Source: a virus
Lineage: Duplodnaviria; Heunggongvirae; Uroviricota; Caudoviricetes
DNA length: 18,379 nucleotides
Reading direction: 5' to 3' (one strand)
IMG/VR virus record: IMGVR_UViG_3300000944_000006
Location: 1 to 18,379 of that record
Both the position numbers and the translations under genes were made by a program. Positions 1-16,092 of the stretch are shown here, in pieces. Positions within the stretch are counted from its first letter, which is position 1; every line of letters begins with the position of its first letter. The notes below the pieces were generated by a model. The model saw only the letters and a program-made list of their open reading frames with translations. It was not told the origin of the DNA and did not search any database.

Positions 1-3000
1 TTAGCCACCTGACACCTTGGTCAAATCTTGCTTGGGTTAGCACATATTCTGCCGTAAAGGTTTCAGCATCTGCCGTTACAGGTAAACTGACAATAGTTAA
101 CGAACCAACCCCTGAATAGTCGCTATGCATACCATAAAATATTATGTTATAAGTAACATTGCCTGTTGGTGGTGTAACTACTCTTCCCCTCGCTGTTATC
201 CTATAAGTGTTCCCTACAATCGCAGGCAAGGCACTTCTCTGTGAAATTGGCTGTTCTGCCGTACTTCTAATCCCAAAACCCTCTAACGGGTCTTCAATTA
301 ATGAGTGGGCAGGACTGCCTGTAACAGGTCTATCAGTATCGGGATGTCCGCTAAAATCCTCAATAAAAAAATCATCGGCGTTCTCGAATGTGTTTGGTCG
401 CAACTGTCTAGCGTTGGTAAGGGATTTGTTCGAATATTCTGCTGATAGCGTAGCAGAAGTACCCGCCGCATCTCTTAAATTACTTGTTTCTGTAAAAAAT
501 TCTGCTAAGTTTGAAAATAGAGAATTGCCATTTAAAGTAGTTGTGTCGCTTAATTGAATTCCCCCTTGGTTGATAATATCATTGCCTTGGTCGTCGCGTA
601 TCACGATACCAAAATTACCATTACCGTCAGTATCCCCTATAATCACCCGCGATACAATTCCGTCTGTAACGGTTATTCGATTACTACCACCATCCAATTC
701 TAAATTAGTATCGCCAATAAAAAGACTTTGTGTGAATGTAGAACTTGCAACAATACGGTCTGCGCCAATAGTACCTTGTACAATAAGATTGCCGTCAATT
801 ACTTGTGTAACAGGTATCCATGTCGTACCATCCCATGCGCGTGTTTCCGAAAACCCTAAAGTTGCGTTAGATATAATCACGGTATCGTTTAAAGTATTTG
901 TAAATCCTACAGTAGAAATAGCGTTATTTGCTATAGTGTTTGACCAAGTAGTTCCTGTCGTGGTTGCATAAAATTGACTAGACCCACGGATTCCATCTTC
1001 ACCATCATTTCCTTTTGGAATAAACAATCCCCATTCATTACCATTACCGTTATCTTGTATGATATACGAATTGCCATCATCAATATTTGAATATACTGAA
1101 TTTATATTAAAATTTGCAGGGTCTGGTTCATTAGACGTAGAAAAATTGCCGATGAATGTTATTTGTGGGGCTGTCGTATCTATTCCACCTACAAAAACTG
1201 TACCATTTTGAATAGTGAAAGGTGTTACGATATCGCCTGTAGATGTATCTACGATTGAAAAGTTTGTGACATCAAAGGTTAAAGAAGACCCGAAATCAGT
1301 TCTTTCTACATTCGAAACACTATTCCAAACCGCATTAGATAAATCGCCAATAAGATTATCGCCAGATGTGAAATTACCATTTTCTGAAATTACTCTTAAC
1401 TGTTTGGTGTTTCTATTCCATGAAACAACTGTCGCAGAAAATGTTGATGTGGTAAGATTGTTTCCTATGAAAATCTGTTCGCCAATACGATAATTTACAT
1501 CATTTACAGGATTATCTACTGTTATAGTGTGTGTAAAATCCGATAAAAGGTTTATTCCAGAAACTATTCCGTCTTGGTCTAACGTAAGTGTATAACCAGA
1601 CGAAATGCCGTCTATAGAATTTAAAGTTTCTTGTATTCTTGTTGTGTTGTCATCAACACTCGTCTCAAAAGTTGTTACTTGCTGTGCAATAGCAATATTT
1701 TGTTCTTCTCGGATAGTGGTTTCAATGTCAAGACGTGCAGAAACATCTGACACTCTAAAGTTGTCTATACTTACCCAATTTTCGCCATTAAATCTATATT
1801 GGTCAAATCTAGGAACACTTACTGTCGATGGTGTGTTTGGCGAAAATACATCATTTCCAACATCAAAATTATTTGAATCTGTGATGCTTTCTTGGCTTAT
1901 ATCAAACCAAATGTCACCAACTTTAGGCGCGGGCGAAAAGTCACTATTAGGAATTATTTCTGAAAAATAAACAGCGATTTGACCGTCTTGTATTTCTGTA
2001 AATCTTGCTGTCCCGACAATAGCTTGTTCTATAGAAGGGTCTGTAACTCTATCCCATGTTTGTGTCACTTCGTTAAATGTGTATGCTTCATTTCTAACTT
2101 CGTTAGTGTCTGGCGAAACACTTATATCAATCCAGACATCCCCATCATTACCTGTTTCAGGCTGTGAAGGTGAAAATAGAATATCAATTCTTCCATCAAC
2201 AATATTTTGGTCAAAGGCTAATATGTCCAAAGAATTGTTTAAAAGAGGGTCTATATATTCGACATAATCTGTTCCGTTATATTCTAAAAGATTTTGCCCA
2301 TCAATCCAGATATCACCTATTGCCGATATTGCAGCAGAAGGTTCTTGCGTTAAGAAATGAAGTCTTACAGATTCGTTTTGAAGTCCAGATGTTAAATTTT
2401 CAAATGCTTGGTCTAAAACATCATTATTGAAATTTATCCAACGATTATTTTTTAAACGATATACATCGCCAGAATCTTCACGTAACCAAAGGTCGCCTTC
2501 ATTACCACCAAAAGGTATTGAAGCACTTCTAAACACAACCAGAAGTTCATCTGATATAGCAGCATTTAAACCTGCGCGTATAATCGCATTGCCAAATGAA
2601 ACAGAATTTGTTCCTGTCCATGTTTGTGTTATGTTATTCCATACAAGGCGTTCAGAAGTTGTTTCGTGTTGCCAAATATCGCCATTTGCAAAAGGCCCAT
2701 CTAAAAAGTAATTAGGTTCTGTGGCAGATATAATCGTCTGATTAGTGCCGTTAAGTATTTCTGCTTCTGATATCTGTGCGTTGCTTGTAATACTTTGAAA
2801 TTCTCCATCGACAAATACAAATCCTTCGTTATTATTTGATGTGTCAAACCAAATGTCGTTTTCTTGGGCATTTTCAGGTGGTGTATCTTGGACAAACACA
2901 GAATTTCCTGAATTATTATTGATATTATCGTCATTGTTGTTGTCATTATCACCAGTGTTATCGCCGCCAATAACGTCATCAGAAGCACCATCATCCCCGC

Positions 3001-3778
3001 CGTCATTATCAGTTCCGTCACCGCCGTCTATAGCACCGCCTGAAACATTAGTTCCGTCACCATCGACAGAACCGCCTGTGTTCAAATGTATTTGTCGACC
3101 AGTGATAACAACACTATCACTTGCAGAAAGATTTAAAGTTCCGCCTGAAGCAATATCCACGTCACCTGCTACTTCAAAATTAGCATCGCCGTTTACAGAA
3201 ACATTTAAATTACCACGAACAAATAGATTCTTATTGTCAAGAATAATTTCAAAATCTTCCCCGCGTATCTTTTGAACATGGTCGCCATTAGGATGATATT
3301 CTTCAAAAGAACCGCTTTTGTGATATATTTGTATTCTTTCTGCACCGCTCGTACCGTCGATTTCTATGAATGAACCACGATTAGCAATAACCGTATTGAA
3401 ACTATATTCTGTAGCATATTCTGAAGACGGTTCTGAAAATAGATTTGTTTTAAGAGGAACATTTGGATTTAAGTTTGTTCCTTTTGCATTTTGGTGCAAG
3501 TCGTTGTTGCCAGAAAGAACGCCTATAACAATAGGGTCTTGCATCGCTTCTACATCGTTAAAGTGAACGATTACAGTAGCATTAACAGGAATAACGTCTG
3601 AAATACCTGTTTGATTTTCAATAGAATTTACTGTGACACTTGCCCAAGGTAAACTTTCTGTCGGTATATCGCTTTTACTAGGCGAATGAAAACCATAGAT
3701 GCGTACACGCACACGACCTGCTTCTAAAGGGTCTTTATTGTCTTCTACTATTCCGTAAAAAATGAAGGGCTTTTTCAT
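1..3778 (-). CDS. gp5: gp5-like baseplate central spike without lysozyme, fused to a long tail-fibre/tip-attachment (J-like) extension; 3' end lies beyond the window (>1259 aa)
   Basis: Manual translation from ATG 3778 is open to the window edge. MKKPFIFYGIVEDNKDPLEAGRVRVRIYGFHS..IPTESLPW is the gp5 N-terminal OB motif. It is followed by EIDGTSGAERIQIYHKSGSFEEYHPNG, then beta-helix repeats ending GRQIHLN (aa 233). Absent from the ORF track because there is no stop in the window. Confidence 0.92.
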   Translation of the reverse strand, partial: MKKPFIFYGIVEDNKDPLEAGRVRVRIYGFHSPSKSDIPTESLPWASVTVNSIENQTGISDVIPVNATVIVHFNDVEAMQDPIVIGVLSGNNDLHQNAKGTNLNPNVPLKTNLFSEPSSEYATEYSFNTVIANRGSFIEIDGTSGAERIQIYHKSGSFEEYHPNGDHVQKIRGEDFEIILDNKNLFVRGNLNVSVNGDANFEVAGDVDIASGGTLNLSASDSVVITGRQIHLNTGGSVDGDGTNVSGGAIDGGDGTDNDGGDDGASDDVIGGDNTGDNDNNNDDNINNNSGNSVFVQDTPPENAQENDIWFDTSNNNEGFVFVDGEFQSITSNAQISEAEILNGTNQTIISATEPNYFLDGPFANGDIWQHETTSERLVWNNITQTWTGTNSVSFGNAIIRAGLNAAISDELLVVFRSASIPFGGNEGDLWLREDSGDVYRLKNNRWINFNNDVLDQAFENLTSGLQNESVRLHFLTQEPSAAISAIGDIWIDGQNLLEYNGTDYVEYIDPLLNNSLDILAFDQNIVDGRIDILFSPSQPETGNDGDVWIDISVSPDTNEVRNEAYTFNEVTQTWDRVTDPSIEQAIVGTARFTEIQDGQIAVYFSEIIPNSDFSPAPKVGDIWFDISQESITDSNNFDVGNDVFSPNTPSTVSVPRFDQYRFNGENWVSIDNFRVSDVSARLDIETTIREEQNIAIAQQVTTFETSVDDNTTRIQETLNSIDGISSGYTLTLDQDGIVSGINLLSDFTHTITVDNPVNDVNYRIGEQIFIGNNLTTSTFSATVVSWNRNTKQLRVISENGNFTSGDNLIGDLSNAVWNSVSNVERTDFGSSLTFDVTNFSIVDTSTGDIVTPFTIQNGTVFVGGIDTTAPQITFIGNFSTSNEPDPANFNINSVYSNIDDGNSYIIQDNGNGNEWGLFIPKGNDGEDGIRGSSQFYATTTGTTWSNTIANNAISTVGFTNTLNDTVIISNATLGFSETRAWDGTTWIPVTQVIDGNLIVQGTIGADRIVASSTFTQSLFIGDTNLELDGGSNRITVTDGIVSRVIIGDTDGNGNFGIVIRDDQGNDIINQGGIQLSDTTTLNGNSLFSNLAEFFTETSNLRDAAGTSATLSAEYSNKSLTNARQLRPNTFENADDFFIEDFSGHPDTDRPVTGSPAHSLIEDPLEGFGIRSTAEQPISQRSALPAIVGNTYRITARGRVVTPPTGNVTYNIIFYGMHSDYSGVGSLTIVSLPVTADAETFTAEYVLTQARFDQGVRWL
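1901..2900 (-). repeat. Six ~60-aa protein repeats (P-x5-7-GD[ILV]W[FILQ]) inside the gp5 extension
   Basis: NDIWFD 2843-2860, GDIWQ 2669-2683, GDLWL 2483-2497, GDIWID 2300-2317, GDVWID 2126-2143, GDIWFD 1901-1918; spacing 174-225 nt. Confidence 0.85.
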
Positions 3779-3783
3779 GAAAA

Positions 3784-3791
3784 TATTTATA
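3784..3791 (-). promoter_or_regulatory. T4-type late promoter TATAAATA for gp5
   Basis: Exact TATAAATA on the minus strand, 5 nt upstream of ATG 3778. Confidence 0.85.
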
Positions 3792-3802
3792 TACGAATAT
3801 TA

Positions 3803-5797
3803 TTAATATCCAAAAATAACGTCTCTATTTGGCGTAGCATATCTTCTCGGTCTAATAACATTTGTTTCATTGACATTAGTGACGTTTTGTGTGTTAGAAT
3901 TTATAGTAAGGCTTTCTTTTTCTTTATCCATACTTTTCTTTTCTTCGCTTTTAACCTTTTGGATATATTTACGGGACATCTCTAAATTTTCTTGCTTTTT
4001 CATAGCAGTTTTAGATTCTATTCTATCCACACGCTTACGTGCTTTAATATTTTCTTTTGCTTTTTCAACAATATTTTGTGCAGAAGAAAATATTAAAGTA
4101 GGTGGTGCTAATTTAACTAAGTTTGTAGACGCTTGTTTAAACAATCCAACTTTTTTCTTTTTATCTGCATTTGTAGTATTGACTTCACTGTTTGCATCAA
4201 CTTCTAAAGCTTCTGTTTTAAACTTCTTGCCGATAACAGGTATTTTAGACAATACATTGTAAGCCATTTCTTTTAGGCGGATTGGTATAGACTTAATAAA
4301 TTCGCCAAAAGTTTCCATGCCAGATAAGAAGGTCGATATTTTGTCATATATAACTTGTTTACCATCTTCTATTTTTTGCTTAATCATGTCCTTAAGACCG
4401 CCAAAGAAACCAGATATTTTCTGCCACATGATAACAAATCCTTCTTTTATATTCCCGCCGCCAAGCTTTTTAGCAAGCAATACTGCGCCTAAGACAATGC
4501 CTGCAATAGCTGCTGCTATTAGAACAACTGGAAGGGAAAGTGCTGTAAATCCTGCTGCAATTGCCATGACGCCTACACGCAAGGCTGTCATTAACGGGCC
4601 TGCTAAAAATCTTAATGGCTTTAAAATTACGCCAAAGAATTTACCGAACTTTTTGAATAGTGCGGTTAGTTTTGCAAACTTTTTGCCAGTGCCAAGTTTT
4701 TTAAGAAATTTCAAAGCAAAAGCAATACCTGTCCACTTCAAAATAAATGCTAAACCAACTTTTCCAAGTAATGCTAATGGAAGAAGTCTTGCAAGAAGAC
4801 CAATCTTCGGGCCTTTTACTTTTTTATTTTTACTTTTACCTTTAAGAAGGTTTAAAGAACGTTGTTTAACAGTGCCTTCGCGAGATTTTTCTTTATTAAT
4901 GAAGTTTTTATTTGTCTTACGCACACGCTTAGGTCGTGTATTTTTCTCAATTTTTTCTATAGTTGAAACAAAGTTACTTATCTTATCCCCAAACATATCT
5001 GCATGTTCTTGAATGCCGTCCATAAGTCCTTGACCAAAGCCTACGACCATTTCAATCATATCTTCGGTGTCTCTTTGCTTGTCAAGCATACCTTCCTGTA
5101 TGCCTTCAAAAACACCTTGTATGAAATCATTCTGCCATTCAATACCATCAGCAATATCTGATAAAATGTCTAAACTTTCTGACATAGATTCAGGTAAAGG
5201 CTTATCGCCACTATCGTCAGTGAAAGGACTGTTGCTGTCAGGCATAGATTTTTTATTTTCTGGCTTATTCTTTTTACCAGTAATAAATTTAAATATCTTT
5301 CCAAGACCACCACCAAAAAACTTCAATAACCTTTTTGATTTATCCAATACAGGTGCAAGTGCGGGTAGTTGCGATAACAGGCCCATTTCAATAATATTAC
5401 CTGCTGTTTTGAACAGGTTTTTAGAAAGAAGGTCTTGTGCTGTTCTAAGCATAGGGAAAAGTTGCGGTAGTTCAGACGCTATTGTAAGGTCTATAATAGG
5501 TTTGATAACTTCTTGATGCGAAGTTCTAGCGACTTTGGAAGTACCTTTAGCAGCAAGTTTTCCAGACTGTTTTAATAGATTTTTAACAGCATCCTTACCA
5601 AACATACCGTCTTCATCGCCGTCTTTGTCATCACTAACAACAGGCAAATCTTTTTTGTTTCTTCTTTTTTGGCGGTTTTTTTCGAGAAAGTCTTGTGTTT
5701 TTTCGTTCTGTTCTTGAACCATCTTGGTCAAAGCATCTTCACGATTTTTCATACTCTCGTTTTTATTGTCGTTATTTTCTTCTTCTTCGTTATCCAA
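3803..5797 (-). CDS. gp29: Tape measure / gp29-like baseplate hub subunit (664 aa from TTG 5797; alternative ATG at 5752)
   Basis: Long, helical-looking, Lys-rich protein with central hydrophobic/amphipathic stretches. It sits directly after gp26/gp51, and its size is close to T4 gp29. Assigned from position and composition. Confidence 0.7.
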   Translation of the reverse strand: MDNEEEENNDNKNESMKNREDALTKMVQEQNEKTQDFLEKNRQKRRNKKDLPVVSDDKDGDEDGMFGKDAVKNLLKQSGKLAAKGTSKVARTSHQEVIKPIIDLTIASELPQLFPMLRTAQDLLSKNLFKTAGNIIEMGLLSQLPALAPVLDKSKRLLKFFGGGLGKIFKFITGKKNKPENKKSMPDSNSPFTDDSGDKPLPESMSESLDILSDIADGIEWQNDFIQGVFEGIQEGMLDKQRDTEDMIEMVVGFGQGLMDGIQEHADMFGDKISNFVSTIEKIEKNTRPKRVRKTNKNFINKEKSREGTVKQRSLNLLKGKSKNKKVKGPKIGLLARLLPLALLGKVGLAFILKWTGIAFALKFLKKLGTGKKFAKLTALFKKFGKFFGVILKPLRFLAGPLMTALRVGVMAIAAGFTALSLPVVLIAAAIAGIVLGAVLLAKKLGGGNIKEGFVIMWQKISGFFGGLKDMIKQKIEDGKQVIYDKISTFLSGMETFGEFIKSIPIRLKEMAYNVLSKIPVIGKKFKTEALEVDANSEVNTTNADKKKKVGLFKQASTNLVKLAPPTLIFSSAQNIVEKAKENIKARKRVDRIESKTAMKKQENLEMSRKYIQKVKSEEKKSMDKEKESLTINSNTQNVTNVNETNVIRPRRYATPNRDVIFGY

Positions 5798-5802
5798 GGT
5801 AT

Positions 5803-5985
5803 TTACTGCTGTTGTTGTTTCTCTTGCTCTTTATTGTGCTTGTTTAATATGCCAATGTAAACGTCACGTTCCCAAAGAACCATATTTTCAAGTTCTGTTA
5901 AAGAATATTTATAAGCATTAATGAGTACAGCATTTGTTTCAAAATAACTGTCTAGGTCAAATTCCTTGACCGTTAGGACAAAAAA
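5803..5985 (-). CDS. gp51: gp51-like hub assembly protein, probably made as the -1 frameshift extension of gp26
   Basis: Frame reads FFVLTVKEFDLDSYFETNAVLINAYKYSLTELENMVLWERDVYIGILNKHNKEQEKQQQQ*. YSLTELENMxxWERDxY is the gp51 motif. No ATG/GTG/TTG precedes the motif. Not in the ORF track. Confidence 0.82.
   Translation of the reverse strand, partial: FFVLTVKEFDLDSYFETNAVLINAYKYSLTELENMVLWERDVYIGILNKHNKEQEKQQQQ
5906..5913 (-). promoter_or_regulatory. Late promoter TATAAATA inside gp51, upstream of the tape measure gene
   Basis: Exact octamer about 110 nt before TTG 5797; it overlaps the AYKY codons, so it could be coincidental. Confidence 0.5.
5955..5985 (-). other. Putative -1 programmed ribosomal frameshift signal (T-TTT-TTG plus hairpin)
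   Basis: Heptamer at 5985-5979, 7-nt spacer, then stem GGTCAA/TTGACC with a 5-nt loop (5971-5955). A -1 shift joins gp26 to the gp51 frame. Confidence 0.75.
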
Positions 5986-6698
5986 TCGTCAAAACCTTTG
6001 ACAGATATTTCGTTGTCCTTACTACAACCTATACAATTAAATTTAGTTTTTATTTCAACAAGTGGCATTGAAGATATAGCTTTTTCAAGTTCTGTCATTT
6101 GCGTCATGTTAAAGCTGTTAAACCACTCTTCAAATTCATCTTCTGATATATCAGATGCAGGCGTAACACTGTCCTTTGTATAAATCTTTTCGACGGAAAG
6201 TTTCATAAGCTGAAATTGTCTATCAACTTCATTATCGTAATTTTTATACACAAAAATAATATCGTTATATGTAAGAAGACGAACTTTTATACCAATATCA
6301 TCTTTAAGAGTAACGTCTGTTATGCGTTTATCGTTTTTTTCGTTTTGAATATTAACATCTGTATCAAGGTCGATTTCTACTTCATTTGATAATTCGCAGT
6401 GTTCACAAGGGATATTATACACATCACGCGAACCAGAAGAAATCATTTTTAATTTTAAAAAGGCCATTTCAAAGTCAGCAATAGGCAATGTTTTAAAATC
6501 TATTTTTTCGCCACTATTAAGACGGTCAAGAATACTAATAACTGTTTCCAGTTTACTTTCGATATCGTCTTCGTCTGTTGTTAGTGATGATGATGCAATT
6601 GCTTTTACGTCTCCTACCTTCATAGGGGAAAGCTTCAATACTTTTCCTGTAATGGGAAGTGTATATACATTTATTGATGATGAAATATTAGGTAACAT
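5973..6698 (-). CDS. gp26: gp26-like baseplate hub assembly chaperone
   Basis: YTLPITGKVLKLSPMKV, LPIADFEMAFLKLKMISSG, CEHC and CIGC pairs, and a C-terminal VKGFDDFL match the T4 gp26 family. Confidence 0.88.
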   Translation of the reverse strand: MLPNISSSINVYTLPITGKVLKLSPMKVGDVKAIASSSLTTDEDDIESKLETVISILDRLNSGEKIDFKTLPIADFEMAFLKLKMISSGSRDVYNIPCEHCELSNEVEIDLDTDVNIQNEKNDKRITDVTLKDDIGIKVRLLTYNDIIFVYKNYDNEVDRQFQLMKLSVEKIYTKDSVTPASDISEDEFEEWFNSFNMTQMTELEKAISSMPLVEIKTKFNCIGCSKDNEISVKGFDDFLS

Positions 6699-7232
6699 TT
6701 ATAGACTCGTTTCTCTGCGCCATTTCTTGAATGACATCGTGATTGTTAAAAGGGCAAGTGTGCTTTGTGATTCGGCTGAAAAGTCTATATTCCCTACGAC
6801 AGATGGATAGACGCCTGTGAAATAAATTTCGTCTATAGGATTATCCATATCGTCTAAGTGAATAAACTTCATGTCCGTTGTATATTCTTTCCAAAATTTC
6901 TGGATTGTTCCTAAATTTGGATTGAAAATTGATGCTTGCCAATCATCAAAAAATTTCTTTATACGGTAATCTTTATCTAAAAGTATCGTTAAAGTAACCG
7001 ATTCATATTGTTCACTATAAGCTAGTTGTAGAAACTTACCAACTTTAATATCACTTGTAGTAAGATTCTTACCACCAATATTCGCGTTTCTGACATAGCA
7101 AGAAAGTAAATCAATATCATTTACCGAATACTCGTCCCTTAGAAATTCAGGTATTGTCAGAATAGTTTGAAATCTATTGACTTGTGCAGGCGGGTTATCC
7201 GTTATTTTTCTACTAAATTCGTTGATATTCAT
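6699..7232 (-). CDS. gp54: gp54-like tail tube initiator (gp19 tube fold)
   Basis: NRFQ, YESVTLTILLDKDYRIKKFFDDWQ, FTGVYPSVVGNIDFS and ITMSFKKW are tube-family motifs; gene lies between gp2 and gp26. Confidence 0.75.
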   Translation of the reverse strand: MNINEFSRKITDNPPAQVNRFQTILTIPEFLRDEYSVNDIDLLSCYVRNANIGGKNLTTSDIKVGKFLQLAYSEQYESVTLTILLDKDYRIKKFFDDWQASIFNPNLGTIQKFWKEYTTDMKFIHLDDMDNPIDEIYFTGVYPSVVGNIDFSAESQSTLALLTITMSFKKWRRETSL

Positions 7233-7918
7233 TATTTCTTCTTACGTGTGCTTCGTTTGTTTTTACGCGATTCTCTTTTAGCGGCCTTAATCGCGTTCTT
7301 TGATTCTACCCAAACTTCTTTCTTAGAAGCTTTAGCAAAACGTTCAGAAGGCAATAGTGTAGCTTTAATCCAATCGTCAGGATGTATAAGCATATATTTA
7401 GAACGCACCTGTGAACGTAGATATTTTTTTACACAAGGCCTTACTTCTGGATATTTAGAAACGTTCTTTAATATTTTCCATGATATCAATACTTTTGTTC
7501 GTGCGTCAAAGCGATTATCACTTGCAAGAAGTTGCATTTTATCAAGTAGAATAATACGTTGTTTCAAAGGTAAATAATGCATATTAATACCCCATATATA
7601 TTTAGCGTCTCTATGGAATACCCATGTCAAAGGAAATCTATCATAATAAGGTAATGTCTTCTTATGTTTCGCGTCATAAAACCAATGATATAATTTACCA
7701 ACCATAACATTTTGCCTGTGACGGCGTTTTTCAGAAAGATACAAGCCCTTTTCATTGATAGCACCTAATTGTTTAACTTGTTCTTTCCACCATTCAGTAG
7801 ATAACCTACGCGCTGCGTTACCTGCTTTTCGTTCTAACTGTCTAAAGACAGATTTATTACGTCCTGCTGTTCCAAGGGCGCTTTGAACATCGTTCCAATA
7901 TTGTGTTTCATCATCCAT
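7232..7918 (-). CDS. gp2: DNA end protector protein
   Basis: GKLYHWFYDAKHKKTLPYYDRFPL, GINMHYLP and CVKKYLRSQVRS are gp2-family motifs. Confidence 0.92.
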   Translation of the reverse strand: MDDETQYWNDVQSALGTAGRNKSVFRQLERKAGNAARRLSTEWWKEQVKQLGAINEKGLYLSEKRRHRQNVMVGKLYHWFYDAKHKKTLPYYDRFPLTWVFHRDAKYIWGINMHYLPLKQRIILLDKMQLLASDNRFDARTKVLISWKILKNVSKYPEVRPCVKKYLRSQVRSKYMLIHPDDWIKATLLPSERFAKASKKEVWVESKNAIKAAKRESRKNKRSTRKKK

Positions 7919-7923
7919 ATATG

Positions 7924-7931
7924 TATTTATA
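7924..7931 (-). promoter_or_regulatory. Late promoter TATAAATA for gp2-gp54-gp26
   Basis: Exact octamer 5 nt upstream of ATG 7918. Confidence 0.85.
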
Positions 7932-8178
7932 TTCCAAACTCAAAAAAATGTATGCTGAATATCTTAGAATTTGGATATTTTTTAACTCTTCCATAAAATG
8001 TCACATTTTTAATATATAATGTATCATGCAAATCGTAACAGCCTTCGTAGCCAAGAATACCTTCTTCTAAACTGTCATCATTGAAAACTGTGTCGTATAA
8101 TGCGCCTGTTTCACAATGAAAAAGTGTAAATTCTTCCTTAAAATAAATGAAGTCGCCTTGTATTGTTGCTTTCGTCAT
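7927..8178 (-). CDS. Hypothetical protein (83 aa), possibly a remote member of the YKYK-TG family
   Basis: ORF fills the gap between gp2 and gp27 and follows a late promoter. N-terminus TKATIQGDF loosely resembles KFKLQGKL. Confidence 0.6.
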   Translation of the reverse strand: MTKATIQGDFIYFKEEFTLFHCETGALYDTVFNDDSLEEGILGYEGCYDLHDTLYIKNVTFYGRVKKYPNSKIFSIHFFEFGI

Positions 8179-8186
8179 AGTGTTTC

Positions 8187-8198
8187 TATTTATAAATA
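8187..8198. promoter_or_regulatory. Overlapping divergent late promoters (palindrome TATTTATAAATA)
   Basis: TATAAATA on + at 8191-8198 (ATG 8210) and on - at 8194-8187 (ATG 8178). Confidence 0.78.
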
Positions 8199-8209
8199 CA
8201 CTTGAAATT

Positions 8210-9985
8210 ATGAGTAATTTAGACGGAATCCGATTTTCAACCGAGTATGAACTACTCGAAGCGACACTTAATACACCAGATGGTAACAGCTACGAAATAG
8301 CTGATATTATCGTTGCGTTAGAAATTGTAGAAGATATTACCAAGCCCTTTATAAAGGGAAGTATAGGCATCCAAGACGCAGTAGGCTTTGTTTCGCAGAA
8401 TATTAATGGTGGTGAAGAATTTATATTAAGATTTAAAACAAAATCTGCCCCGATGGAATATGAATTTAGTAAGACTTTTCGTGTCTATGAAATATCAAGA
8501 CGTGAACAAAAGCAAGCCAAGACATTATACTGGCAGGTAGAAATCATTTCAGAAGAATTTGTTAAGAACATCGACACAAAGATTTCACGCGCGTTCAATA
8601 ACCAATATACTTATCAAATCATACAAAACATTCTTACTAATGATTTAGAAACAGACCAAGATTTTGATTTTGAGCAAGACACTGACATACAAAATTATGT
8701 TATACCGTACATGCATCCTTTTGAAGCTATCAATTTCTTTAAAACACGGTCTATAAATGATAATAGTAATGCATCATTCTATTTCTTTGAAAATAGGGAT
8801 GGTTTTAAATTTATGTCGCTTGAAGGATTAAATCAAAAAACGCCTGTTGAATTTTTTCACAAGCCCTATGGATTTAGTGAACCATTTGCCAGACATAATT
8901 TTGTTGAAGATTTTTTCCCAACAGAAATGGCATATGACAATATTCTTGAAAATAAGAAATCTGGCCTTGAAGGTACACACGGAACTTATATAGAATTGAC
9001 AGAAAAGCGCGTCTTTACGCAAGGTGATAATAGAGCATCACAATTCATTAAAGTTTTTTCGAAAGACCAAGACAATCTTTCTCGAAAATGGTTAGAAAGT
9101 CGCGCGAAGAATATTTCTGATTTTGAAAGTATAAATTATACATTTCATATGAACGGTTCAACACTTCGTACTGTCGGGGATACTTTTAGATTTAATTTGC
9201 CTGCTGCACATACAGACACGACAGGGTTTCTTGAACAGGATGAAAAGCTTGATGGTGTCTGGATTATGAAGCGTATCAAGCATGATATTGTAGGCACTGT
9301 GTATAAACAACATATCGAAGCGTGTAAATTTGAAGGGAATTTGATTGTAACAAATGAAGAAAGGCCAAATAATCTTACGAGTGACCGTGAAGAATATACT
9401 GAAAATGTTACGCGCGAACGTGGTATGAACTGTAATCCACAAGACCTTTCGCCGCGTGGAAGATTAGAAATAATGTCTCATGAAGGTATTGTCATACGGC
9501 GCTATCGTGACACGCAAGGTGTCTGGACAATAGGATTAGGTGTAACACGCTTTGCAGGTGCGTCTATTAATCCAGAACGTTTTACAGGGTTTATATCAGA
9601 AGACCAAGCATTTGACTTGTTCGATGAAGTCATACAGCAATATATAGATGGTGTAAATCGTGCAAAAGAATGTGTTGATTTAACACAAGAAGAATTTGAT
9701 GCTTTGGTATCACTTGCGTATAATGTCGGGGAAAATTTAGGGCCAAAGACTATAGAATATATTCGTGATGGTCGTGTGGTTGATGCTATTAATCTATGGC
9801 GAGCAAATCCAGAATTACAAGAAAGACGTGATAGAGAAGTTACGCTTGCATCTACTGGAACATATTCTGGACGATTTATAAACGTACACACCGCCGATGA
9901 AGACGGTGTGTTAGACTTAAGACCAATACGTTCTATAAGAATTAATAACGGTAACGTTGAAGATTCTGGGGAACTAATTGTTTAA
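8210..9985 (+). CDS. gp27: gp27-like baseplate hub protein fused to a C-terminal GH24 lysozyme (591 aa)
   Basis: The N-terminal ~395 aa have hub-type motifs (EDITKPFIKGSIGIQD, YFFENRDGFKFMSLEGL, LDGVWIMKRIKH). The C-terminal part has HEGIVIRRYRDTQGVWTIG (E-x8-D-x5-T at 9482/9509/9527) and EFDALVSLAYNVG. ATG 8210 follows a late promoter. Confidence 0.82.
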   Translation: MSNLDGIRFSTEYELLEATLNTPDGNSYEIADIIVALEIVEDITKPFIKGSIGIQDAVGFVSQNINGGEEFILRFKTKSAPMEYEFSKTFRVYEISRREQKQAKTLYWQVEIISEEFVKNIDTKISRAFNNQYTYQIIQNILTNDLETDQDFDFEQDTDIQNYVIPYMHPFEAINFFKTRSINDNSNASFYFFENRDGFKFMSLEGLNQKTPVEFFHKPYGFSEPFARHNFVEDFFPTEMAYDNILENKKSGLEGTHGTYIELTEKRVFTQGDNRASQFIKVFSKDQDNLSRKWLESRAKNISDFESINYTFHMNGSTLRTVGDTFRFNLPAAHTDTTGFLEQDEKLDGVWIMKRIKHDIVGTVYKQHIEACKFEGNLIVTNEERPNNLTSDREEYTENVTRERGMNCNPQDLSPRGRLEIMSHEGIVIRRYRDTQGVWTIGLGVTRFAGASINPERFTGFISEDQAFDLFDEVIQQYIDGVNRAKECVDLTQEEFDALVSLAYNVGENLGPKTIEYIRDGRVVDAINLWRANPELQERRDREVTLASTGTYSGRFINVHTADEDGVLDLRPIRSIRINNGNVEDSGELIV

Positions 9986-10097
9986 TATAGTCTTGCGCGA
10001 CCACACGCGGAATATCGTCAAAAGCTTTGTTTAAAAGCTGATTATTTTCAGCTTGATATTCATCATCTTCAAGTAACAGTTCGTCTAATTGTGGCAT
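9942..10097 (-). CDS. Small acidic hypothetical protein (51 aa)
   Basis: Strong SD AAGGAG before ATG 10097 and a sigma70-like promoter upstream; overlaps the 3' end of gp27 by 44 nt on the opposite strand. Confidence 0.6.
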   Translation of the reverse strand: MPQLDELLLEDDEYQAENNQLLNKAFDDIPRVVAQDYIKQLVPQNLQRYRY

Positions 10098-10129
10098 ATT
10101 GATTTCTCCTTTTTTCTCAATACATGTTG

Positions 10130-10158
10130 TATATAACAACATCATTCAAGCTTGTCAA
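10130..10158 (-). promoter_or_regulatory. Host sigma70-type promoter TTGACA-17-TATATA, overlapped by the palindrome TGTTGT-N5-ACAACA
   Basis: TTGACA at 10158-10153, 17-nt spacer, TG-N-TATATA ending at 10130. Confidence 0.6.
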
Positions 10159-10426
10159 ACTGAAAATCAATAATATTTCGACATTTTACTTCTATGTAAA
10201 TTTTCTCCTCTTTAAATTCAGACGGGTCTAGCTTCTTATTGGTTATGATGTAAATTGTGTATTTTTTACCTACTTCAAACAAATTTTTCCATCTTTTCTC
10301 ACTTATATTATATATTATAAGTGATACTTTATTTTCTTCTTTACTATAGAAATAGATTCTTTTAATATGCGAATAGTTTAAGAATCTACCAGTTATTTTA
10401 TATTTGTAACATTTCTTATTAAACAT
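10142..10426 (-). CDS. YKYK-TG family paralogue (94 aa)
   Basis: YKYKITGRF ... GKKYTIYI; part of a tightly packed run of five genes. Confidence 0.8.
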   Translation of the reverse strand: MFNKKCYKYKITGRFLNYSHIKRIYFYSKEENKVSLIIYNISEKRWKNLFEVGKKYTIYIITNKKLDPSEFKEEKIYIEVKCRNIIDFQFDKLE

Positions 10427-10428
10427 GT

Positions 10429-10725
10429 CTATATCTTCTTTACAGATACATTATGCATATCATCTGACATTATTTCATGAACAACAGCAGAGTCTTTGGT
10501 GTTGATTGATGTGTATATAGTGTTTTCGCCCGTCTCGAAAGACAGTTCAACTTTATTTCCAACACTTTTTATAAGGTCTTCTGACTGCGGTATCTTTGAT
10601 AGATATGCGTTTATATCAAGCACAACAGGTGTCCCGCCACTACTCTTTGACATAACCTTATATGCGCTACCAAATTTACCATCGAATGACGTAAGTTTGC
10701 CTTGTAATTTAAATTTCTTTATCAT
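10429..10725 (-). CDS. YKYK-TG family paralogue, diverged (98 aa)
   Basis: KKFKLQGKL ... VLDI ... GNKVELSFET; ATGA overlap with the upstream gene. Confidence 0.78.
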   Translation of the reverse strand: MIKKFKLQGKLTSFDGKFGSAYKVMSKSSGGTPVVLDINAYLSKIPQSEDLIKSVGNKVELSFETGENTIYTSINTKDSAVVHEIMSDDMHNVSVKKI

Positions 10726-10985
10726 AATATTTCTGCCAAATGTGTAATGTTAAACACATGGTCTTGGCAGATATCGTAAGAAAAATAATTCATTTCATAG
10801 CTTGTAGTGAAGTAGATGCGATACTTAGTATGAAGATTAAAATCATATGTATTTAGAAATATATCCTTTACGATACTTATTAAATAATGTCCATTTTCAG
10901 GCGCATTTAATATAAGAACATGATACCTGCCACATTCAACATACCCTTCAATGAAATATTTGTATAATTTATTTGTATCAGTCAT
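10722..10985 (-). CDS. YKYK-TG family paralogue (87 aa)
   Basis: YKYFIEGYV ... KYRIYFTT; overlaps both neighbours. Confidence 0.78.
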   Translation of the reverse strand: MTDTNKLYKYFIEGYVECGRYHVLILNAPENGHYLISIVKDIFLNTYDFNLHTKYRIYFTTSYEMNYFSYDICQDHVFNITHLAEIL

Positions 10986-11316
10986 TAATCGCTATCTTTA
11001 TGATTTTAGCTTCGTCATTAAATAAGTCTACATGTATGGATTTGTGTATAGTTTCTGTTTCATCTGTGTTTGGTAAAAGAGCAACATCAGGGATAGAATC
11101 TTTCGATATGTTATTGCATTCAACATAAACCGATATGCTTTTTTGTAAAAGATTTTTAAACAAGTCATAAAGATTGACGACATGAAGAACATTGATATGA
11201 TATGAAATATTACTATCAAAGGATATTTCCATTCCTAGTTCATCATCATAATTATATAATACAACCCATTGAGAACCTATTTCAACAATTTTGCCTGTGA
11301 ATTGAATTTTATACAT
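10978..11316 (-). CDS. YKYK-TG family paralogue, diverged (112 aa)
   Basis: MYKIQFTGKI ... SISVYVE; 8-nt overlaps with both neighbours. Confidence 0.75.
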   Translation of the reverse strand: MYKIQFTGKIVEIGSQWVVLYNYDDELGMEISFDSNISYHINVLHVVNLYDLFKNLLQKSISVYVECNNISKDSIPDVALLPNTDETETIHKSIHVDLFNDEAKIIKIAIND

Positions 11317-11608
11317 CTATAATTTCCATATTATCTATTTGGATATCTTCAAAAAAGATTTCTTTTGTTGCAAATATTATATCACGATAAAAATAATATG
11401 CATTATTTTTTACCACAAAATACACTCTTAGGATTTGACCTGTAGAAAAAGGAAGCATATGGTAGCTTGGCATGTTAGTTATTCTAAATTTGAATTGTTC
11501 AGTGCGTGTATCTTCATGACTGTAAAATCCTAAAACGCTATTAGATTCACTGTAGAAAATATAGCCTTCGATATATAATTTTTTGGGCAGTTTTGGCATC
11601 TTCGACAT
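11309..11608 (-). CDS. YKYK-TG family paralogue, diverged (99 aa)
   Basis: KKLYIEGYI ... GQILRVYF; first gene after gp53. Confidence 0.72.
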   Translation of the reverse strand: MSKMPKLPKKLYIEGYIFYSESNSVLGFYSHEDTRTEQFKFRITNMPSYHMLPFSTGQILRVYFVVKNNAYYFYRDIIFATKEIFFEDIQIDNMEIIDV

Positions 11609-11640
11609 AATAACAGTAAATCATAATAATAAAATTAGTT

Positions 11641-12111
11641 TTAAGTATTATACAGTTCTCGTTCGTATTCGTCAACAAATGTTTTTAAATATTGTGGCCG
11701 TAAAATTCTTATTACACGTTTGTCTTCATTACGTTTTATAGCGATATCAAGGTTTGTGACAGCCGTACCAAGACCTTCTTTATTGATAAGCCCATCATCA
11801 TCCAGATAATGTGCAACTTCATGTGGATTTTCTGTTAACGCAAGAACTTCGTCTTCAGTTCTATACCAACCAAAATACGGGTCTATGATTTCATTATACA
11901 GTAAGACGACCCAATGAAAATCTTGTGAACCATAAAATTTAAAAGACACATCTTCAGGACGTTCGTTGTGCTTGATATTATACAATGTGAAAACCGCTCT
12001 ATCATCATCAACGCCTGCCTTGAAATAAAGACGTGTCATAACATCTGTTAAAACCTGCGTTTGATTGTCAGGTGTTTTGTAATATAAAAATGGATAGTTT
12101 CTAAACAACAT
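11641..12111 (-). CDS. gp53: Baseplate wedge subunit (LysM-like)
   Basis: FRNYPFLYY, YNIKHNERPEDVSFKFYGSQDFHWVVLLYNEIIDPY. Confidence 0.92.
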   Translation of the reverse strand: MLFRNYPFLYYKTPDNQTQVLTDVMTRLYFKAGVDDDRAVFTLYNIKHNERPEDVSFKFYGSQDFHWVVLLYNEIIDPYFGWYRTEDEVLALTENPHEVAHYLDDDGLINKEGLGTAVTNLDIAIKRNEDKRVIRILRPQYLKTFVDEYERELYNT

Positions 12112-12114
12112 TTT

Positions 12115-13086
12115 TTAGAAACCTGCTAACACGTCATCGCGCATAATAAGTTCTGTTTCTGTAAAGTCTAAATTCATTTCTAATTCAGCAGGAAACCCAT
12201 TCTTATATGATGCAAAATTTCCAAGTGTAGAATAATTGACAGTAATCGTGTTCATCACGCAGTTTTTTACTTTTGGTATAAAAGGGTTTTCTATTATGTC
12301 GCCATTAGGGTCTTTTAAAAGAAATCTTAGTTTAAATTCGGAAGGCATGATAAAATAGTTATCACTTGCGGAAAATTGTTGACCGCGTTCTGCTGTACTT
12401 CTGACGCGATTGTCCGCATCAAATACTTCTGTATTCCCTACGAAATTTTCTGGTGAAGATGAACGGCGCAAAATTCGTATTAAGTCGTATATAGAATCGC
12501 AATCTGCTTCTTCCAAAGGTGACATACGAAATGAGAAGTTAAACGTTCTTAAGTTTGGTTCGCGGTAAAGAACTTCTAAATGTGGACTTGAAACTTTACG
12601 TCTAGCAGCATCTTGTGCATCACGCAATTGATTACTGCCTATACTTGCTATTCCGCGACCTGATGAATTGGCAATATCGCCTGCAAATCGTGAACCGTGA
12701 TTTTTTATTTTATCTAAAAAACTGTCGCTTGTATCCCCGTCTCTAAATGTACGAAAAACACCTACATCAGTTCCTTCCCATGAATGTGAAGACGAAAAGT
12801 TCATATTGAATGGCGCGGGTAAATAAATTGTTTCGTGCTGTATGCGTCTTTGTGCATTTACAGATGATTGTGTGTTTGCAATAGACGTTGTGCGTGACAC
12901 AGAAGCTGTTTCGCCATCAACAGGCAATTCGTTACCGCGCGGGGTTACTGTTCCATCAAAAGTTTGTGGAAGGACTTCAATAACGGATATCGCCATGATA
13001 TTTTCATATTCGTTCTCAATACCAAGCAGTTCTTGTGGATATTGTACGTTTCTTGATAATGTTTGATTTGAAAGTTGTGTAGGCAT
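12115..13086 (-). CDS. gp48: Baseplate tail tube cap
   Basis: IYLPAP, PHLEVLYREPNLRTFNFSFRMSP, MPSEFKLRF, KNCVMNTITVNYS and GFPAELEMNLDFTETE are gp48 motifs. Confidence 0.92.
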   Translation of the reverse strand: MPTQLSNQTLSRNVQYPQELLGIENEYENIMAISVIEVLPQTFDGTVTPRGNELPVDGETASVSRTTSIANTQSSVNAQRRIQHETIYLPAPFNMNFSSSHSWEGTDVGVFRTFRDGDTSDSFLDKIKNHGSRFAGDIANSSGRGIASIGSNQLRDAQDAARRKVSSPHLEVLYREPNLRTFNFSFRMSPLEEADCDSIYDLIRILRRSSSPENFVGNTEVFDADNRVRSTAERGQQFSASDNYFIMPSEFKLRFLLKDPNGDIIENPFIPKVKNCVMNTITVNYSTLGNFASYKNGFPAELEMNLDFTETELIMRDDVLAGF

Positions 13087-13091
13087 ATTTT

Positions 13092-13099
13092 TATTTATA
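13092..13099 (-). promoter_or_regulatory. Late promoter TATAAATA for gp48-gp53
   Basis: Exact octamer 5 nt upstream of ATG 13086. Confidence 0.85.
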
Positions 13100-13114
13100 T
13101 GCCTTGAATGTCGT

Positions 13115-13122
13115 TATAAATA
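13115..13122 (+). promoter_or_regulatory. Late promoter TATAAATA for the gp4-like gene
   Basis: Exact octamer 5 nt upstream of ATG 13128. Confidence 0.85.
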
Positions 13123-13127
13123 ACTTT

Positions 13128-13635
13128 ATGGCACATAAATCAAGATACACACCGTTAAATGAAGAAAAATATTTTGGGGAAGGAGAAATCATTTGTCGTA
13201 GTTCATGGGAACGCGCCATTTGTCGTTACTTTCGATAATACTACTTCTGTTGTGCAATGGTCATCAGAACCTTTTGCTGTACCCTATAAAAAGCCGTATA
13301 GCAGGCGTCTAAACGGCATTCACCGATATTATCCAGACTTCCTTATAGAATTAGAAAATGGTCGTAAGCTACTTTTGGAAATAAAGCCCAAACACGAAAC
13401 TCTTCCGCCTGTAAGACGTAAAAACCAAAAAAGAAAGACATTTGCTAGGCAGAAACTAACATTTCTAGTGAACCAAGCTAAATGGAAATCTGCAAGAGCA
13501 TTTTGTGCTAAGAATGGTTTAGAATTTCAAGTATGGACAGAAGACCACATAAAGTCACTAGGCATTAAGATTGTTTCGGGAACAACTAAGCGAAAGACAA
13601 CAGCAAAGAAGAAAAAGACTGCTAAGAAGCCTTAA
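13128..13635 (+). CDS. gp4: Head completion nuclease (gp4/gp50, TnsA-like PD-(D/E)xK), split by a +1 frame change at 13230-13238
   Basis: First frame: MAHKSRYTPLNEEKYFGEGEIICRSSWERAICRYF(R*). +1 frame: FDNTTSVVQWSSEPFAVPY..HRYYPDF..LLEIKP..VNQAKWKSA..FQVWTE. Joined, they give a complete ~168-aa protein. Confidence 0.85.
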
Positions 13636-13921
13636 ACACTAATTTTTGAACATTAAATGTTGGGTCTTTGTTGTAAAAAAAGTACGGGCCGCTAATAGTA
13701 TCACCACACATAGTGTCAGTTGTGAAATAAATTTCAACGAATTTGTCATGATGTATATGTCGAGTTTTTTTGCACATTTGTAAATGTCTTATATCAACTT
13801 TTAAAACAGTTGTGTACACTCTGCTACTAGGATAATTTATAAAAGCATATTGAGATACTACACCATCAATGTCGATATAAAAATCGCTGTTTATCTGTCC
13901 TGTGAATTTATATTTGTACAT
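13622..13921 (-). CDS. YKYK-TG family paralogue (99 aa)
   Basis: MYKYKFTGQIN..AFINYP..VLKVDI..FVEIYFTT. Confidence 0.85.
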   Translation of the reverse strand: MYKYKFTGQINSDFYIDIDGVVSQYAFINYPSSRVYTTVLKVDIRHLQMCKKTRHIHHDKFVEIYFTTDTMCGDTISGPYFFYNKDPTFNVQKLVFKAS

Positions 13922-13925
13922 GTCT

Positions 13926-14213
13926 TTAATCTTTAAATTCTAAGTGTTTTACTACAAGTGTTTCGTCGCCATTGTATGAATAATAGCTTGAATGCGGTAT
14001 AAGAAACGATTTTTTGTTAGAAACCTGTGTCGTGAAGTAAATTTCTATAAGTTTTCCGCGATTCTTTTCTATCATTTCCTTACACATGTTTAGATGAAAA
14101 ATATCAATTTTCAAAACCTTTATACGGGATTTTATATATACGAAAGCTTTTTTATTTTTATTTGGCTTGCTATAATCTCCTATAGTGCCTACAAATTTAT
14201 ATTTGTAAATCAT
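13926..14213 (-). CDS. YKYK-TG family paralogue (95 aa from ATG 14213)
   Basis: MIYKYKFVGTI..VLKIDI..LIEIYFTT; ATGA overlap with the 14210 stop. Confidence 0.85.
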   Translation of the reverse strand: MIYKYKFVGTIGDYSKPNKNKKAFVYIKSRIKVLKIDIFHLNMCKEMIEKNRGKLIEIYFTTQVSNKKSFLIPHSSYYSYNGDETLVVKHLEFKD

Positions 14214-14398
14214 GGCATCTTCCAATCGGCAGGAATAATACCGCCCGCTTTTAGTTCTTCCAAAGCTTCTATAAGACACAGTTCATCTGTCTTACCCCAA
14301 CCGACATCAGGGTAAGCATCATCATATATGCGAATGCTACGCGCGCGTTCTTTAACAACTGCGACACGTAGCTTTTGTAGTTCGTCGTGTATCAACAT
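14210..14398 (-). CDS. Hypothetical protein (62 aa)
   Basis: Packed between neighbours with a coupled stop/start. Confidence 0.65.
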   Translation of the reverse strand: MLIHDELQKLRVAVVKERARSIRIYDDAYPDVGWGKTDELCLIEALEELKAGGIIPADWKMP

Positions 14399-14404
14399 CT
14401 TCTT

Positions 14405-14746
14405 CTAAAGACCTAGAAATTCGATTTGTTCAAGTGCAGCTTCGACATTTAAATATGTTTCTTGCATTTCTTGGAGAACTTTCTTGTTTCCGCGATTCAT
14501 TTCTTTCAAAAGAATTGCTTTGTGCTTGTGTTTCCCAAAGATTTCTGTCCGAAATGACGCGCCATATTTGTCAGTGCGATATTCACCACCTGTCAAAGAC
14601 ATATAAATCCCACGCGGCCCATTACGACCACGACCATCTTTTTCGTAGCTTACAGACATTCTGATATGCTCACCGCCAAATAATTCACTCACAAATGTAA
14701 GGCCGTTTTCGCGTCTTCCGACAATTTCATTAATTTCATTCTTCAT
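14405..14746 (-). CDS. Hypothetical phage protein (113 aa)
   Basis: SD-like GGGAG upstream; natural-looking protein (SVSYEKDG..RGIYMSL). Confidence 0.75.
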   Translation of the reverse strand: MKNEINEIVGRRENGLTFVSELFGGEHIRMSVSYEKDGRGRNGPRGIYMSLTGGEYRTDKYGASFRTEIFGKHKHKAILLKEMNRGNKKVLQEMQETYLNVEAALEQIEFLGL

Positions 14747-14768
14747 CTCATGTTCTCCCGAAAAGATT

Positions 14769-14792
14769 AAAAAGACCGCCGAATGACGGCCT
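14769..14792 (-). terminator. Rho-independent terminator
   Basis: AGGCCGTC-ATTC-GGCGGTCT stem with G-U pairs, followed by TTTT; 16 nt after stop 14809. Confidence 0.7.
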
Positions 14793-14808
14793 TAAGTATT
14801 AAATGGGG

Positions 14809-15171
14809 TTAGTCCCAACGACTTTGAGCATAGGCTTTCAAACCGATTTTAGTAAGTTCTTCAGCAACAATATCCTGCCAAGCTTTTTTGATATCAATGT
14901 TCTGAACGAGACGTGCAAGACCGTTGCCGCGCGTCCAGTTCTGATACCCGCCGTTGTAAGACTTTTTAAATTCTTCTTACTTAGCAACGATTTTACCGAT
15001 TTTTGAACGTCCATCAATAACGATTTTTGTCCAAGCAAATCCACATGGATATTGGTCATCTTCGCGTGTATATTTCGCGTCAATAGCGGCATCAGCTTTC
15101 GCATAGATTTCTGTCATAAGCGTATTAAACTGCGCGACAGTAGTGATTTGGGCAATGTCTGTAATGGTCAT
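14809..15171 (-). pseudogene. CGFAW-motif phage protein (120 codons) with an internal TAA at codon 65
   Basis: SD GAGGAG. ..PCGFAWTKIVIDGRSKIGKIVAK*EEFKKSYNGGYQNW..QNIDIKKAW..LTKIGLKAYAQSRWD* continues in the same frame up to the terminator. Confidence 0.7.
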
Positions 15172-15203
15172 GATTTCTCCTCTTCAGAACCTTTCCTACA
15201 TAT

Positions 15204-15236
15204 ATTGTATGCCATAGTTTGTTGTGTTTTACAACA
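15204..15236 (-). promoter_or_regulatory. Early-type promoter (TATGG-NN-TACAAT) with the palindrome TGTTGT-N5-ACAACA over the -35 region
   Basis: TACAAT at 15209-15204, TATGG at 15216-15212, palindrome at 15220-15236; upstream of the SD-led gene at 15171. Confidence 0.55.
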
Positions 15237-15262
15237 TAAGTTTTATTACAATTTTGTAATGT

Positions 15263-15472: not shown

Positions 15473-15476
15473 GATA

Positions 15477-16041: not shown

Positions 16042-16060
16042 AATAAATCCTATTTGGATT

Positions 16061-16089: not shown

Positions 16090-16092
16090 CAT

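Follow-up and report, generated by a model that had tools for sequence, protein, structure and literature searches.

A GH24 lysozyme domain on the gp27-like baseplate hub of a T4-like phage

Tal proteins of siphophages are the classic case of hubs with enzymatic domains. Phage T4 is the textbook example of how contractile tails breach the cell wall, with the lysozyme residing in gp5: once the (gp27-gp5*-gp5C)3 complex is in the periplasm and the helix has come off, the peptidoglycan is digested by the three lysozyme domains, which stay tied to gp27 via the OB domain (PMC3004832). In the Anabaena myophage A-1(L), a plain spike is surrounded by the hub gp15 (PDB 8KEA) with its lysozyme-like, endoglucanase and peptidase domains (PMC10966104). 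The hub gp110 of Staphylococcus phage 812 bears a CHAP 'cleaver' domain, and the diffocin hub (8V3W) is cited in the paper on that phage (PMC13433997). Here, a stretch of 18,379 nucleotides (nt) of a caudovirus (IMG/VR record IMGVR_UViG_3300000944_000006, positions 1 to 18,379; the window hereafter) was analyzed, in which a single gene codes for a gp27-like hub followed by a GH24 lysozyme domain.

We consider it likely that this gene encodes the single central hub of a complete T4-like phage, each subunit of which would carry a tethered GH24 muramidase acting during penetration. The rearrangement that places the lysozyme on the hub of a T4-like phage is real and rare; enzyme-carrying hubs are already known from other phages. 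The gene and its parts are the following:

8210-9985, + strand: hub-lysozyme gene (P0002), 591 amino acids (aa) plus stop, frame uninterrupted
8210-9334, + strand: gp27-fold baseplate hub module, aa 1-375, assigned by AlphaFold2 model, Foldseek and PHROG 350
9335-9439, + strand: predicted flexible linker, aa 376-410, length varying among relatives; contains Cys408
9440-9874, + strand: GH24 muramidase domain, aa 411-555, assigned by Pfam PF00959, domain model, Foldseek and triad alignment
9482-9484, 9509-9511 and 9527-9529, + strand: catalytic codons E425, D434 and T440, respectively, assigned by triad alignment
9875-9982, + strand: C-terminal beta-hairpin extension, aa 556-591, with strands at aa 556-584 in the domain model

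An earlier note on the same DNA, drawn up from the sequence alone, had read this gene as about 395 aa of hub, a linker and a GH24 domain with an intact E-x8-D-x5-T triad, next to a gp5 without lysozyme. The gp27-like module proved to be present, the confidently folded part being slightly shorter than supposed (aa 1-375), and the linker, the domain with its triad and the lysozyme-less gp5 were all found as described. The hub was modeled with AlphaFold2 on a 100-sequence alignment (A1), and the predicted local distance difference test score (pLDDT) was mostly above 90 for aa 10-375. In a Foldseek search of the PDB, P1 gp6 and T4 gp27 (2z6b_D, 9mkb, 1k28_D, 1wth_D) ranked first, the T4 gp27 match reaching an E-value of about 1e-14 and a template-modeling score on the target (TMt) of 0.69-0.73 with about 395 columns aligned; below them came Mu gp44, the pyocin (R2) and diffocin hubs, hubs of extracellular contractile injection systems and VgrG. 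Model and Foldseek together place the four-domain gp27-type fold with its two tube-like beta-barrels in aa 1-375. At the sequence level, aa 12-220 belong to PHROG 350 'tail protein' (E 1.2e-47), a family that in cyanophage S-RIM12 comprises a hub encoded three genes upstream of gp5. The hub profile gave one match in the complete genome, which indicates a single hub gene.

The lysozyme module (aa 411-591) was matched by PF00959 (Phage_lysozyme) over aa 423-530 with an E-value of 1.1e-17 and 65 bits, compared to a cut-off of 22.3. Its E425, D434 and T440 align with E11, D20 and T26 of T4 lysozyme, and this triad is invariant in the four fused proteins discussed below and in all 39 sequences of the subfamily alignment. 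The solved relatives recognized by sequence were the endolysins 8app (1e-11), 7m5i and 6et6 and the P22 lysozyme 2anv, T4 lysozyme being weaker at about 1e-3. The model of the module, built with the 39-member alignment, had a pLDDT of 93.9 and displays the two-lobed GH24 fold: the GH24 endolysins 7m5i, 8app and 2anv superposed with a root-mean-square deviation of 2.1-2.9 Å and a TMt of 0.75-0.80, and T4 lysozyme with a TMt of about 0.63. The beta-hairpin of aa 556-591 is part of the lysozyme module rather than a product of the fusion, since the free phage lysozymes P0158-P0160 also have it. The module is an intact GH24 lysozyme, which presumably has muramidase activity.

The presumed partner of the hub, the gp5 spike, is encoded at the beginning of the window, and another candidate cell wall enzyme lies elsewhere in the genome:

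2-3778, - strand: gp5 spike, presumed hub partner, first 1,259 of 1,829 aa; OB domain and beta-helix, no lysozyme
genome 34915-35466 (outside the window), - strand: Peptidase_M15_3 protein, 183 aa; Pfam E 4e-20, PHROG 894 'endolysin' E 2.9e-40

The gp5 open reading frame (ORF) crosses the record ends and continues to genome position 149464 (genome 149464-151175), giving a full length of 1,829 aa. Its OB domain (aa 9-103, PHROG 694) directly abuts the beta-helix, which begins at aa 110-111 (PHROG 430, aa 111-345); past the helix, a stretch rich in D, G and N (about aa 250-300) is followed by about 1,500 aa of fibre-like sequence. PF00959 had a single match across the whole 151-kb genome, in the hub gene, and none in gp5, while the same domain was detected in T4 gp5 as positive control. 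The T4 gp5-type arrangement, with a lysozyme inserted between OB domain and beta-helix, is therefore absent here. The single hub gene with its gp27 fold and intact triad and the lysozyme-less gp5 with its very long fibre-like extension thus bear out the rearranged device, with lysozyme on the hub, that the earlier note had postulated. The M15 peptidase is 65% identical to a copy in a 160.9-kb relative and, by its family membership, is probably the endolysin of this phage.

For the hub together with the gp5 OB domain, complex prediction gave a score of 0.59, the best of three controls reaching 0.17, with runs agreeing on at least 72% of the contacts and a partner pLDDT of at least 74. Of 80 solved complexes, 58 attained the mark applied, as did 2 of 110 mismatched pairs; only 7 of those 80 did so with a score of 0.60 or below, and so did both passing mismatches. 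The predicted complex gives weak support; as the T4 gp27-gp5 complex has been solved, the pass may reflect likeness to it rather than binding, and likeness is the most that it shows.

The fusion is not confined to this genome. Three metagenomic relatives from other samples, P0003 (JGI), P0004 (ENA) and P0005 (ENA), share the whole architecture at 46-51% identity; the gene of P0004 is followed by gp48 and gp53 on an ENA contig of 160.9 kb. In pairwise comparison of the four fused proteins, the hub averaged an identity of 0.52, the lysozyme 0.60, the indel-containing linker 0.34 and the tail 0.32. Conserved domains joined by a variable linker are the pattern of a long-standing, selected two-domain protein, and sequence comparison indicates that the fusion is old enough to be common to proteins only 46-51% identical. 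In described T4-like phages the fusion is not common: among 50,697 phage records no place covered at least 80% of the query, and none held both parts together. An exhaustive HMMER search with aa 1-400 gave 2,119 representatives of the hub family at an E-value of 0.001 or below, and among the best 150 of these, the 149 besides the query were all 213-494 aa long and none was fused. A single-protein scan of IMG/VR recovered no further fused relatives, alignment scans of IMG/VR and JGI metagenomes gave only distant matches (24-28% identity) to the hub part only, and a word-index search with the hub profile gave 16 proteins, PF00959 being present only in the two fused ones. In the fold search of BFVD no viral protein exceeded a template-modeling score on the query (TMq) of 0.58. 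In the literature, no described T4-like phage with a GH24 domain at the hub C-terminus was found. The contig from Logan that is identical over 8000-10100 derives from the sole run holding the stretch ('algae metagenome') and is not independent support, because this run is probably the source sample. No RNA data set containing the stretch was listed.

The hub of Synechococcus phage S-ShM2 (596 aa) came up in the BFVD search as a possible described fusion and was rejected, as it is without a Pfam domain and aligns over the hub part only. This homologue, SShM2_015 (L103:4004-5791), is about 150 aa longer than most members of the family, and the extra length may be an undescribed insertion.

With regard to T4, the likeness to the device solved as PDB 1K28 and 2Z6B comprises the gp27-fold hub, a gp5 with OB domain and triple beta-helix and a GH24 domain with E/D/T triad at the hub, and it extends to the T4-type baseplate gene set (gp26, gp29, gp48, gp53, gp54). 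The difference lies in the attachment: the T4 lysozyme is inserted in gp5 between OB domain and helix, is held on gp27 only via the OB domain and non-covalently, and is blocked by the helix until dissociation, whereas the lysozyme described here is a C-terminal domain of the hub itself, covalently joined by a flexible linker, with 20-24% identity to the T4 lysozymes. In A-1(L), a myophage of a cyanobacterium, a trimeric hub likewise carries extra enzymatic domains, one of them lysozyme-like, around a separate spike without lysozyme. However, A-1(L) does not belong to the T4-like phages, the lysozyme-like domain of its hub is inserted near the N-terminus (residues 56-265), and activity was shown experimentally for the endoglucanase and the peptidase domain; between A-1(L) gp15 and the enzymatic part described here, no sequence relationship was found. 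Phage 812 gp110, the Tal proteins and diffocin resemble the hub in placing a peptidoglycan hydrolase behind a gp27-like module of four domains, and in them the hydrolase acts at the tube tip during penetration. The combination of both parts in one chain, by which enzyme-carrying hubs and Tal proteins are recognized, was found here as well. They differ in that their enzymes are CHAP or M23-type peptidases or have other folds and act on thick Gram-positive walls. Phage 812 also has a weld protein over its active site, for which no counterpart was seen here. The earlier note had rightly pointed to the Tal proteins of Gram-positive phages, but this background was incomplete, as enzyme hubs have also been published for the myophages A-1(L) and phage 812; the novelty of the present case is lowered accordingly, because enzyme-carrying hubs were already described in myophages.

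The hubs of the same PHROG 350 family in T4-like cyanophages and 145-160-kb Vibrio phages (S-RIM12 Sn310910_014, Vibrio phage D507) are likewise accompanied by a lysozyme-less gp5, but they stop after the hub module (373-460 aa) and are unfused. The gp5 of Vibrio phage D507 has 296 aa with OB domain and helix only, that of cyanophage S-RIM12 has 859 aa and no PF00959 match, and PhiM9 and P10VF encode the OB and helix parts of gp5 as two separate proteins (PMC4621102); the hubs of these two are unfused as well. A gp5 free of lysozyme occurs widely outside the T-even group. The free GH24 endolysins of the P22 gp19 type (2ANV; FAHEc1 endolysin 7M5I; AbLys1 8APP) and P0158-P0160 possess the same fold and triad but stand alone; P0158-P0160, at 44-56% identity, share the beta-hairpin extension. 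All of these free enzymes are without the cysteine pair Cys408/Cys488 of the four fused proteins.

The origin of the lysozyme was analyzed separately. The lysozyme part is 20-24% identical to T4 e and to the T4 gp5 lysozyme, compared to 44-56% for the three free lysozymes P0158-P0160, which are encoded on small unrelated phage contigs, one of them with the lysozyme gene two genes upstream of terminase. In described phages, nearly all lysozyme matches listed were annotated as endolysin or lysozyme, the best listed one being from Microcystis phage Mwe-JY13 (40%). A scan of one genome per prokaryotic species, which used two peptide patterns from this subfamily and thus samples the subfamily and not all GH24, gave 190 relatives; of the best 50, 41 belong by their listed names to Alphaproteobacteria (Hyphomicrobiales, Rhodobacterales, Caulobacterales), with 32-44% identity. 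This agrees with the likeness to alphaproteobacterial lysozymes that had been noticed previously. One bacterial copy that was checked adjoins tail-fibre genes and is therefore in a prophage. In a maximum-likelihood tree, the four fused and the three free phage lysozymes formed a clade with support of 100/100 inside a mostly alphaproteobacterial group, with T4 e and the gp5 lysozyme far outside; within the clade the order of fused and free forms was not resolved, so that a single origin of the fused forms is neither shown nor excluded.

The further suggestion that the lysozyme was captured from a host-side element was not supported: the closest relatives are free phage lysozymes, the fusion is old, and the G+C content at third codon positions (GC3) is as low as in the rest of the gene (0.20 in the lysozyme part vs. 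0.28 in the hub). The higher overall G+C of the lysozyme part (0.40 vs. 0.34; genome 0.336) reflects amino-acid composition and not foreign DNA, since its GC3 is the lower one. A recent capture was hence discarded on composition, GC3 leaving no trace of recent import. Sequence relationships thus mark the lysozyme as an endolysin-type GH24 from the phage pool circulating in Alphaproteobacteria and not as a displaced gp5 domain; the donor may have been a host prophage or another phage. The gp32 of the source phage has its nearest counterpart in Caulobacter phage Cr30 (37.5%), which fits an alphaproteobacterial host and does not establish one. As a side observation, the gene of the closest free lysozyme, P0159, shares the 36-kb ENA phage contig L004 (8001-8627 and 15795-16061) with genes for a GapR-type DNA-binding protein and a DnaN clamp, and this points to an alphaproteobacterial host of that contig.

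Following this, we propose that the hub, a trimer by homology, would bear on every subunit a GH24 muramidase held by a flexible linker of about 35 residues. Sheath contraction would drive the spike through the outer membrane; with the hub then in the periplasm, the three tethered lysozymes would cleave glycan strands locally, so that the tube could reach the inner membrane. The linker of about 35 residues would be long enough to reach the flank of the spike. Because the link to the hub is covalent here, the enzyme would stand at roughly the place it has in T4 while gp5 is free of lysozyme. Lysis from within would probably be left to the separate M15 peptidase. This sequence of events builds on the two folds, the intact triad, the single gene copy, the late-promoter context and the conserved fusion, and it presumes that the protein is present in the virion, forms a trimer, binds gp5 and is active as an enzyme at the time of penetration.

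Several points weigh against this proposal. The hub part was matched by no hub family in the Pfam scan, T4 gp27 belongs to PHROG 1135 and the hub described here to PHROG 350, which are different sequence families, and hhalign of the hub with T4 gp27 reached only an E-value of 0.089, colinear over 184 columns. Along the same line, a profile search of the hub against PDB sequences returned no gp27 and a chance match only, and tblastn of T4 gp27, gp28 and gp51 against the genome gave nothing convincing. At the level of sequence, the hub part is not a member of T4 gp27's own family. As sequence comparisons with T4 gp27 were this weak, the gp27-like call rests on fold and context, and it was the fold comparison alone that settled the gp27-likeness the earlier note had claimed for the N-terminal part. 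Moreover, presence in the virion, the uncleaved state and activity are presumed. Most phages with a PHROG 350 hub and lysozyme-less gp5, among them Vibrio phage D507 and cyanophage S-RIM12, are without a Pfam lysozyme on hub or gp5, and therefore a tail lysozyme may be dispensable. The proposal would also require that the enzyme be kept inactive on the virion.

A different fate of the same protein would be that of a precursor cut in the linker during tail assembly, the lysozyme then being a separate, non-covalently held chain or being released on contraction. T4 gp5 is processed (at Ser351) in the linker next to its lysozyme (PMC3004832), and the linker described here is long, predicted to be disordered (pLDDT below 50 for aa 377-406 in the AlphaFold2 model) and poorly conserved. 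However, comparison of the four linkers revealed no evident protease site or conserved cleavage motif; we regard cleavage as unlikely, and it would be a variant of the tethered muramidase rather than a true alternative. It is more improbable still that the GH24 module was kept mainly to grip peptidoglycan, as an anchor or for positioning, and not to cut it. The GH24 muramidase domain of SpmX from Asticcacaulis (6h9d), which has been repurposed for such a role, was among the structural matches, and the many related phages without a lysozyme domain on gp5 or hub would be compatible with such a role, but the full triad and its surrounding motif are invariant in fused and free forms, and no part of the protein is better conserved than the lysozyme (0.60).

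That the lysozyme part doubles as the endolysin of the phage, or is mainly this, and lyses the cell from within, made for example from an internal start, could be argued from its being the only GH24 in the genome and from its nearest relatives, free phage lysozymes of which one is encoded next to a terminase gene. Contrarily, a separate M15 peptidase is present as endolysin candidate, neither a promoter box nor a Shine-Dalgarno sequence precedes Met406, and a free-standing form was not found in this genome, which makes this role very improbable. Least credible of all is an artefact of assembly or sequencing that hides a stop or frameshift between two genes. The window comes from one metagenomic assembly, and the sole run holding it, its probable source, is available as contigs, in which minority variants are not visible; however, the same continuous architecture exists in three contigs from other samples at 46-51% identity, and a second assembly of the run is identical over 8000-10100. 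The tethered muramidase on the hub is hence the reading that we retain.

With respect to the linker, Cys408 at its end (9431-9433) and Cys488 in the lysozyme (9671-9673) are invariant in all four fused proteins. The position of Cys488 aligns with Leu84 of T4 lysozyme. Neither cysteine is present in the three closest free lysozymes (P0158-P0160), which carry other residues there. From this pattern, the pair may form a disulfide or latch between the linker end and the C-terminal lobe. A more far-reaching idea, which we put forward as doubtful, is that relocation of the lysozyme to the hub was coupled both to the growth of gp5 into a spike-fibre of 1,829 aa and to a Cys408-Cys488 disulfide latch. 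If this were true, gp5, freed from the lysozyme insert and the maturation cleavage, could have grown to that length, and the latch would keep the enzyme fixed or inactive on the virion until it reaches the periplasm, replacing the steric block by the beta-helix in T4.

Many marine and environmental T4-like phages have a gp5 without lysozyme, and to the question of how they pass the peptidoglycan the fused-hub clade gives one answer, namely an endolysin-type GH24 attached covalently to the hub, about where T4 holds its lysozyme non-covalently. As a natural domain swap in a conserved machine, it is of use for asking which features of the T4 device are essential: tethering, masking by the helix or proteolytic maturation. 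A further point that it makes evident is that phages exchange endolysin and virion-lysin modules with one another. The general picture is unchanged, because hydrolase-carrying hubs are already documented in other phage groups.

The start of the gene and its transcriptional context involve three further features:

8191-8198, + strand: T4-type late promoter box TATAAATA, 11 nt 5' of the ATG at 8210
8187-8194, - strand: divergent late box overlapping that of the hub gene and serving an 83-aa ORF
7927-8178, - strand: 83-aa ORF situated between gp2 and the hub gene and preceded by a late box of its own, without Pfam or PHROG match

The longest frame around the hub-lysozyme gene spans 8147-9985 (+) and offers two candidate ATGs, at the frame start 8147 and at 8210. 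The latter was taken as the real start, since the box TATAAATA at 8191-8198 falls between the two and since the relatives P0004 and P0005 begin at the equivalent residue in the alignment. Seven TATAAATA boxes were observed in the window compared to 3.0 expected, and six of them are located 5-36 nt 5' of the starts of gp5, gp2, the 83-aa ORF, the hub-lysozyme gene, gp48 and gp4; from the remaining one (5906-5913), it is about 108 nt to the gp29-like ORF 3' of it. On account of its own late promoter box and of this pattern across the window, the hub-lysozyme gene is classed as a late gene of the virion class. The two overlapping divergent TATAAATA boxes at 8187-8198 form the palindrome TATTTATAAATA, which faces the hub-lysozyme gene on one side and the 83-aa ORF on the other and looks like a compact bidirectional late promoter. 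In the relatives L002 and L017, the fused hub is preceded by a DUF7694 gene, to which the 83-aa ORF is not related.

The neighbours of the hub-lysozyme gene are homologues of gp5, gp29 (tape measure), gp26, a gp54-like tube protein, gp2, gp53, gp48, gp4 and gp32, and the source genome is a complete record of 151,219 bp with terminal repeats (repeat of 44 bp). Among these neighbours, the gp4-like head completion protein (13159-13635 of the window, + strand; PHROG 218) was also matched by the Pfam endonuclease family Tn7_TnsA-like_N with an E-value of 6.9e-18.

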